This document shows positions 5,527-6,794 of a DNA stretch of 64,000 bases, piece by piece. Location of the stretch: assembly GCA_024137785.1 (NCBI GenBank), contig JAHRHZ010000218.1:34058586-34122585 (forward strand), given 5' to 3'. The first letter of the stretch is position 1. Each line of letters begins with the position of its first letter. Source of the DNA: Ginglymostoma cirratum (taxonomy: Eukaryota). The notes under the pieces were generated by a model, which worked only from the letters and a program-made list of their open reading frames with translations, was not told where the DNA came from and did not search any database. A program made the translations under genes and the position numbers.

Positions 5527-5923
5527 CTGACAATGCTGTCACTCATTGTGTAGTATGAAAACCTGATTTCTGTGATTGAGCTAGGCAAAGAAGTGGTATT
5601 TAGGTATGAGGTGGTTGCCAGGCAGTTCTTTCCTGTTTCAGCTGTTTGAAAGAACCATTCAGAAGAAAATTATGGAACATATTATTTTAATTGAACTGTT
5701 TGAAGAGGATTAGAAAGCTCTCAAGGCAACAATATGGTTTGTGATGCTATCAAGGATATTTTCTGCATCTCTTAGAATAAAGCTCTTGATTTATTAAAAC
5801 TTTTTTAGTTTTTTTTGTTGATTGCAAGAATGCCCTTCTTTGTCTGCTGCAAGGTTGCAGTATTTTCACTTGGTACTGTCAGTTGTACAGAACACATTTT
5901 AGAAACCAGTTTTAGAGAAAGCA

Positions 5924-5965
5924 ATGTCTGAAGTCTTGGAGCTTTCAGAGGACAGCGTATCAGTG
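5924..5965 (+). CDS. SMARCAD1: Candidate alternative first coding exon of a short SMARCAD1 isoform (MSEVLELSEDSVSV)
   Basis: GCAATG start with purine at -3 and an in-frame TAG upstream at 5900; 14 codons end at GTG|gtgagt, phase 0, in frame with exon 18339; position is similar to the human skin-specific first exon. Confidence 0.5.
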
Positions 5966-6794
5966 GTGAGTAGCCATTTTATCTTGAATGACTGCTATTC
6001 AACCCGTAATGTATAACAAGTTTGTTGTAGATTCAATTGAGAATGAAAAAGGAAAATGCGTAGTGTGGATATAATATGCAACTAAAGAATCTAAAGATTT
6101 ACGCTATCCTGATTCTTGAGCATTATAATTTAGTGCACCTGTACAGTTTTCTTGTGTGTAAGAATATCATGTTTTCTACCTAAAAATAGTCCATTTTTTA
6201 AAATGATTTTGTTAAAATAAGAAATTAGAAATAAGAAGTAAGAGAGCTTAGAGCACACTACTAATAAATTTGGCAAAAGTTTATTGCATTTCTTTAGAAA
6301 GGTCTACAGAAATATTGCCTTAAGCTCCATGTTGGGCAGAAAACATCTGCTAAGTGTGCTGCTCCTATCCAGACTTGTTCTTATTTCCTTTTGACAGTTT
6401 TTCTCTGATGAATGATGGTTCCAAGTTTTTTCTAATACCCCACACCTTAAAAAAAATGAAAATGAAGAATTCCATTTTAATTTGAAAATATGCTGCCTGA
6501 AGCCAAGCCTAGCCCAGCTATTAATGTGTGTGGTTGTTGAAGCACGCCTAATCTGATTTGACAGTGTTATTGCTTGGCAGCTGTTGGATTCCTAATAATA
6601 ATGTTTTCTTTTAAACATTTTTCTTCTGATTATCTTTTTGTGTTGACTTTGGCAAAAGTGCTGTATAGTCTCCAGATTTCGTATTCAGACTTGAACATAT
6701 AAAATGTTGTACCAATTCGTCTTTGAGTTAGCAACAGCTTGATAGCAACCAAATAACGTTGCTAAAATCTTTGATTTTTTTCCTTAAATAGAAA

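Follow-up and report, generated by a model that had tools for sequence, protein, structure and literature searches.

An internal exon of carpet-shark SMARCAD1 and its probable relationship to the first exon of the human skin isoform

The skin isoform of human SMARCAD1 begins at an exon inside the gene, and the question raised here is whether an intron of carpet-shark SMARCAD1 contains a counterpart of that exon. The human isoform, SMARCAD1-s, has 596 amino acids (residues 431-1026) and is associated with adermatoglyphia and the Basan and Huriez syndromes; its first exon, of 378 nt, is non-coding, lies in intron 9 and is spliced to exons 10-24, the ATG lies 9 nt into the next exon, and upstream ORFs damp translation (accessible parts of PMC8659716 and bioRxiv 10.64898/2026.08.17.745107). 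By CAGE, the short exon is found in about 70 of 1829 samples, mainly stratified epithelia, and its donor is printed as TG/GT (accessible part of bioRxiv 10.64898/2026.08.17.745107). We consider it probable, on balance, that an extra exon ending at position 5965 of the shark sequence is a first exon driven by an internal promoter, that it would give rise to a 613-aa isoform without CUE domains, and that it shares a common gnathostome ancestry with the human skin isoform. This explanation is favoured because the donor is used in a related species, the frame is open through 16 exons, the leader is identical in three carpet sharks, and the sequence is constrained.

The window analysed is the whole 64,000-nt stretch of Ginglymostoma cirratum DNA, which, from protein matches, contains the 3′ two-thirds of carpet-shark SMARCAD1 (Table 1). 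A preliminary description of the locus had placed an exon end at 5314, a donor at 5965/5966, an ATG at 5924, an in-frame TAG upstream of it at 5900 and the next exon at 18339, reading FKKF and devoid of Met; on re-reading the sequence, all of these positions proved correct, as did the reading of exon 18339. The exon at 4900 ends in PFNNWESL, codes for the first part of the SAM-key fold and has the donor CTG/GTGAGA (a slash marks splice boundaries throughout), and read-through past it meets a first in-frame stop, TAA, at 5351. The start context GCA-ATG occupies 5921-5926. In intron numbering, the alternative exon ends at base +651 and the GT follows at +652. The upstream ATG at 5830 has an ORF that extends over the main ATG, and this upstream ATG has been lost in a related species (G5832A).

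Table 1. Features of the SMARCAD1 locus in window coordinates
Feature	Position	Strand	Basis
Constitutive exon of SMARCAD1, corresponding to human exon 9	4900..5314	+	Edges from RNA contigs
5′ part of intron; likely promoter region, or retained if an alternative donor is used	5315..5605	+	X16 contig 5285-5633, depth 6.7
Alternative exon, at least 360 nt	5606..5965	+	X16 389-nt contig
LESSQ, TTA-GAA-AGC-TCT-CAA-G/GC; likely relic or homologue of MESSQ leader and donor	5710..5727	+	Best intron match
Five upstream ATGs with short ORFs: 5606, 5672, 5734, 5744, 5830	5606..5931	+	
ATG and 14-codon leader MSEVLELSEDSVSV, phase 0	5924..5965	+	Sequence; same N-terminus in XP_048456916.1 and XP_059506023.1
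Splice donor GTG/GTGAGT	5966..5971	+	Sequence and X16 contig
Shared exon, counterpart of human exon 10; starts FKKF, carries long key helix	18339..18541	+	
The 14 ATPase coding exons that follow, with an open frame up to the stop	20084..51539	+	

Taken alone, the combination of a donor with an in-frame ATG is a weak signal, close to what chance would provide. The donor at 5966 ranks fifth among the 785 GT sites of the intron under a simple matrix of donor base frequencies; an open in-frame ATG also precedes 3 of the 9 other intronic donors that score within 1 bit of it or better, and an ATG is expected to turn up before a stop with a probability of 0.21. The site rises above chance because of a spliced RNA from a relative and because of RefSeq models, both described below. 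The preliminary description had further set about 1.4 kb free of transposable elements against an intron otherwise full of them. The first part stands, in that 5315-6817 holds no locally repeated element and 5315-6700 has a single match in the genome; the second was overstated, since a proxy based on local self-matches, which is blind to repeats without a nearby copy, covers 19% of the intron, and by the same proxy there are two longer repeat-free runs in the same intron (9765-12271 and 7596-9533).

Evidence for splicing comes from RNA. Eight of 19 runs were examined (X1, X2, X3, X11, X12, X16, X18 and X19), seven from the same species as the window and one, X16, from a related species in which about 3% of bases differ in this region. 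In X16, a 389-nt contig covers 5606-5965 and continues with 28 letters that are the start of exon 18339, so that the proposed use of the donor, with joining to exon 18339, is demonstrated in the relative. The depth of this contig is 7.9, compared with 115 for the constitutive exon. The junction that had been proposed as a check is thus present in the relative, but it was found in 0 of the 7 own-species runs among the joints listed. In the latter, the constitutive joint 5314 to 18339 is present in X18 (4 reads), X3, X11 and X12, unspliced contigs cross the alternative donor in X1, X2, X11 and X12, there is almost no cover at it in X3 and X18, and X19 has one read overall. A rise in unspliced depth from about 5740 in X1 (10-11 versus 4-7 elsewhere) was considered as a sign of nascent RNA and set aside, because contig depth cannot reveal a start.

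The frame that opens at 5924 runs through 16 exons without an internal stop and gives a product of 613 aa. A product of about this length, CUE-less and with this N-terminus, had been predicted from the window, and it is annotated in two other carpet sharks: XP_048456916.1 and XP_059506023.1 are both 613 aa, both start MSEVLELSEDSVSV/FKKF and share an identical layout with the window, the former agreeing with the window's product at 611 of 613 residues. Both are automatic RefSeq predictions, in which, as for all short RefSeq models, the 5′ exon is not visible where a model starts at an internal Met. The species are presumably the whale shark and the zebra shark, respectively, and in the upstream exon each of them departs from the window at 11 of 138 residues. 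At all 11 of the variant positions compared, X16 agrees with XP_048456916.1 and is the same species; the two are not independent, and the independent support therefore consists of two relatives rather than three. We regard it as nearly certain that the exon is spliced in carpet sharks.

How the exon is used is a separate matter. According to one reading, which we rate as very improbable, positions 5903-5965 form a 63-nt in-frame cassette exon of the long isoform, or else the junction is splicing noise. There is an AG just before 5903 followed by an open frame, the level in X16 is low, and the own-species runs show no junction among the joints listed. However, the X16 contig passes through 5903 without a break, and no 5314 to 5903 joint appears among those listed for the eight runs, which speaks against the cassette that the preliminary description had offered as an alternative. 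Protein models point the same way: 236 long proteins match well at the boundary, and in 226 of these the canonical upstream end is directly adjacent; the 10 others are teleost or coelacanth variants, and none of the 236 shows the 21-residue insertion expected of the cassette. The constraint described below and the two RefSeq models, for their part, speak against noise.

A more serious rival, although in our estimation an unlikely one, is an alternative 5′ splice site, through which the upstream exon is sometimes lengthened by 651 nt to 5965. Such a transcript would carry the stop at 5351, more than 600 nt before a junction (at 5965), a configuration that leads to nonsense-mediated decay, and the 613-aa models would then be derived from 5′-incomplete reads. 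A second X16 contig, 5285-5633, takes in the final 30 nt of the upstream exon and crosses its donor unspliced; its depth of 6.7 is near the 7.9 of the spliced contig, cover ends at 5965, and the level is about 7% of the main form, all of which would suit a single extended exon. At such depth, a chance break between the two contigs has a probability of about 0.09. A simple motif scan found no TATA, p63, GRHL or AP-1 match in 5360-5965, the only TATA-like matches being at 5337-5351. Set against this, the two contigs overlap by 28 nt, which is less than a full word overlap and fits two populations of RNA; taken together, the pair mildly favours a separate 360-nt first exon beside a decaying read-through over one extended-exon population. 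Moreover, the human counterpart has been proven to be a first exon, with support from CAGE, as far as the accessible part of its description goes, and ATG leaders follow the loss of an internal Met (see below), for which a decay isoform would have no need.

The pattern of constraint bears on the same choice. Compared with X16, the alternative exon (5606-5965) differs by 4 substitutions and 1 gap over 360 nt, while the region of the second contig (5285-5633) has 10 substitutions and 1 gap, and the coding exon 4900-5314 has 17 substitutions in 415 nt, 16 of which are listed singly. The alternative exon is therefore better conserved between window and X16 than the coding exon upstream of it (p 0.013, or 0.029 if the gap is counted), and also than synonymous sites, of which 5 of 83 are changed (p 0.024). 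Constraint also appears stronger in 5606-5965 than in the intervening 5315-5605 (p 0.06-0.07), a point against the alternative-donor reading. No difference from X16 is listed in 5555-5762 or in 5887-5965, the latter including the ATG, the leader and the exon end, although the lack of change across the 14 leader residues is not significant by itself (P 0.06-0.22). With these points combined, we think it likely that the exon has its own promoter and is not simply an extension of the upstream exon. Under the internal-promoter reading, transcription would begin near 5600 and produce a 16-exon mRNA, on which ribosomes would bypass several upstream ATGs and start at 5924, with output presumably damped as in human.

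Within the upstream coding exon itself, evolution is fast for two close species: the listed changes comprise 11 replacement and 5 silent ones (dN/dS about 0.55), and almost all lie in the linker preceding the SAM fold.

Does the shark exon correspond to the human one? The shark intron corresponds to the human one, since the start of the mammalian 596-aa models lies three residues past the beginning of the exon that aligns with 18339. The alignment of this boundary, together with the accessible parts of the human papers, bears out what the preliminary description had said about the human gene, namely that the short isoform starts in this same intron from a non-coding exon and that its Met lies in the next exon. 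The shark short form and SMARCAD1-s share the intron and the acceptor (an exon at human codon 428) and consist of 16 exons, 15 following the first in the shark like exons 10-24 in human. The first exons are similar in size, 378 nt in human and at least 360 nt in the shark. Both donors read TG/GT, the letters compared being TG/GT and the G at +5, while +3 is G in the shark and A in human. We take the human donor to lie at about c.1281+666, an offset that our literature search, which had some primary papers outside its reach, did not find in print; if the offset is right, the human exon would occupy intron bases +288 to +665 and the X16 contig +292 to +651. Upstream ORFs are a further common trait, the shark exon having five upstream ATGs, one of them lost in the relative. 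Both proteins have no CUE domain, and both keep the ATPase and a motif resembling NLS2. The start codon is where the two differ: in human it lies in the next exon, whereas the shark's next exon offers no early Met and translation would begin with the exon's own 14-codon leader from 5924. We conclude from these comparisons that the shark exon is best described as a coding-leader variant of the human isoform rather than a plain member, and that the arrangement is probably ancestral.

Short models that begin at the same boundary are widespread. They are found in Xenopus tropicalis and Xenopus laevis (618 aa), other frogs, turtles (607 aa), crocodilians, squamates, birds, mammals and a few teleost records; where the taxon group of a record was not named, it was assigned from cluster mates or by resemblance in sequence. 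Two models come from Callorhinchus milii, one of 613 aa with a different leader and one of 597 aa that starts at a Met of its own within the shared exon (XP_007900701.1 and XP_007900702.1, both predicted records). Other sharks are represented by XP_043530341.1, XP_072439957.1 and XP_078064934.1, two with the leader MESSQ/ and one with M/. The shark and Callorhinchus models thus have the same exon boundary as the window but differ in their leaders (MESSQ, M, a 14-mer or none). For MESSQ, the only match of at least 4 of 5 residues in the 13-kb intron is at 5713, within the conserved block and before G/GC, and 29 of 3000 shuffles of that block match equally well; this suggests that the MESSQ sharks may use this region too, splicing from a different donor about 240 nt upstream of the one at 5965. 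Run-on from the unspliced end of the intron was rejected as a source of the window's leader, the frame there reading ...DRLYFLFQ. The one-codon M/ leader of XP_078064934.1 may have its counterpart in a second place inside the conserved block, the ATG/GTTTG at 5734-5741.

This diversity could also mean that a true internal first exon was recruited independently in sharks, frogs and amniotes, the 5′ end of the intron being favourable and the ATPase half of the protein self-contained, a scenario that we find quite improbable. The leader peptides of sharks, chimaera, frogs and reptiles have no clear similarity, carpet sharks seem to use two donors, and several lineages have no short model among the members listed (ray, skate, catshark, coelacanth and salamander clusters, at most 15 members each). 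Against repeated recruitment, a single acceptor is common to every jawed-vertebrate group that has a short model, the TG/GT donor occurs in both human and window, and QS followed by M or L ends the leaders of both Xenopus and turtle. Provided that the exon has its own promoter, we judge from these sequence comparisons that shared descent with the human exon has much in its favour.

The donors of the short models are a further point of comparison. A leader whose last residue is M, L, V, W, P or A cannot be derived from the unspliced intron end, because that end must read NAG. Among distinct exon ends, 12 of 19 fit NTG/, including the window (read directly) and human (printed TG/GT). The excess has p 1e-6 against general donor frequencies and 9e-4 against SMARCAD1's own donors (4 of 15), falling to p 0.035 against the G/GTRAG sites of the window and to 0.09 without the two M-only leaders.

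Because sharks do not have the next-exon Met that human uses, the shark exon would provide the start codon itself, and a corresponding pattern is seen across models. An ATG leader is present in 17 of 17 shark and frog models from NCBI and UniRef that have no early Met in the shared exon, compared with 8 of 34 models whose shared exon has a Met (the chance rate of an ATG leader being the 0.21 given above). The 17 hold 3 distinct leaders in sharks and 8 in frogs; related species do not count as independent cases, and annotation is biased towards models that have a start. Four Logan-derived ORFs, one unverified NCBI record, two partial bird records and four teleost records were left out of this count. 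The Logan ORFs (one skate-like and three from frogs) and the unverified record have a later Met start and no leader, and they count against the pattern; the four teleost records all have leaders, one having since been replaced by a longer version. That ATG leaders track the loss of the internal Met is, from such comparisons, suggestive only. In the Xenopus pair (P0070 and P0202), an 18-codon leader is kept, with 15 of 18 residues identical, despite a Met in the shared exon, which suggests that the leader itself may be conserved there.

What would the short protein be? A Pfam search of the short and long proteins shows no CUE match in the short form, with SNF2 and Helicase_C kept, and the NLS2-like motif is at residue 309. 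The SAM-key region is human 383-497 (accessible part of PMC11742319), and in yeast Fun30 the long key helix contacts protrusion I and is needed for ATPase activation (accessible part of PMC10355287). According to a structural model of the long shark protein, the exon boundary at 408/409 cuts a helix at 405-411, drops the three preceding helices and keeps a helix at 421-457, the model being of low overall confidence (pLDDT 73-84 to residue 430 and 47-59 in 431-460) and its helix limits being used for 361-440 only. An AlphaFold model of the short form was not used as evidence, as its mean pLDDT is 58 and falls below 50 over most of residues 30-70. Of the long protein, the product would retain the two ATPase lobes together with the NLS2-like motif and the long key helix, while the CUE domains and the greater part of the SAM fold would be missing. 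A loss of CUE-based targeting and a key helix without its SAM body are predicted, and the short form would then be a differently targeted and differently gated remodeller. The long key helix is common to Fun30 and the shark short form; the yeast study removed the entire SAM-key module, whereas the shark short form is predicted to keep half (accessible part of PMC10355287).

The shark counterpart of human NLS1 (window 5030-5056) is much less basic, KSKNHGK-like in place of FNKKRKKN (accessible part of bioRxiv 10.64898/2026.08.17.745107). Judging from this, the contrast in nuclear import between the isoforms may differ in sharks.

The shark short models are already in RefSeq. The literature search, which had most subscription papers outside its scope, found no paper on a non-human counterpart of the short isoform, nor any linking the shark models to the human one. 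The words "vertebrate", "zebrafish" and "primate" are absent from the main text of bioRxiv 10.64898/2026.08.17.745107, and a zebrafish smarcad1a paper mentions a short Ensembl transcript that is not tied to this exon (PMC9585957, accessible part); PMC9113868, seen in part, is a retracted paper and is not relied on. Mouse is reported to have no counterpart of SMARCAD1-s (PMC8659716, accessible part). What SMARCAD1-s does in human has not been established, and with the mouse said to lack a counterpart, at least in the accessible text of that source, the disease is left without an obvious animal model. There is nevertheless a Mus musculus model of 596 aa, XP_006505576.1.

If the isoform is gnathostome-wide, isoform-specific knock-outs and tests on skin appendages become possible in Xenopus (which has the 618-aa models), shark and chick embryos. 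An ancestral isoform would be far older than fingerprints. Lineage-specific coding leaders would yield unique peptides for protein detection, which the human form does not have, and relocation of the start codon would be rare evidence of selection on the short protein itself. For epidermal expression in sharks we see about an even chance. A bolder and rather doubtful proposal is that the fingerprint isoform represents an epidermal programme dating back to the origin of jawed vertebrates, in which one internal promoter was kept for more than 400 million years while the start codon shuttled between exons, and in which a CUE-less ATPase with half a SAM-key was selected for the patterning of denticles, scales and ridges.

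Finally, we note three minor features of the gene. Many sharks outside the carpet sharks have WEAL in place of WESL at the end of the constitutive exon. A bird-like SMARCAD1 record of 1566 aa (P0210) scores as if the SAM-key region were present more than once, which reflects either an internal duplication or an assembly error. The end of the constitutive exon (ATCACTG/GTGAG, 5308-5319) and that of the alternative exon (ATCAGTG/GTGAG, 5959-5970) are equal at 11 of 12 bases, a likeness due either to an old local duplication or to chance.
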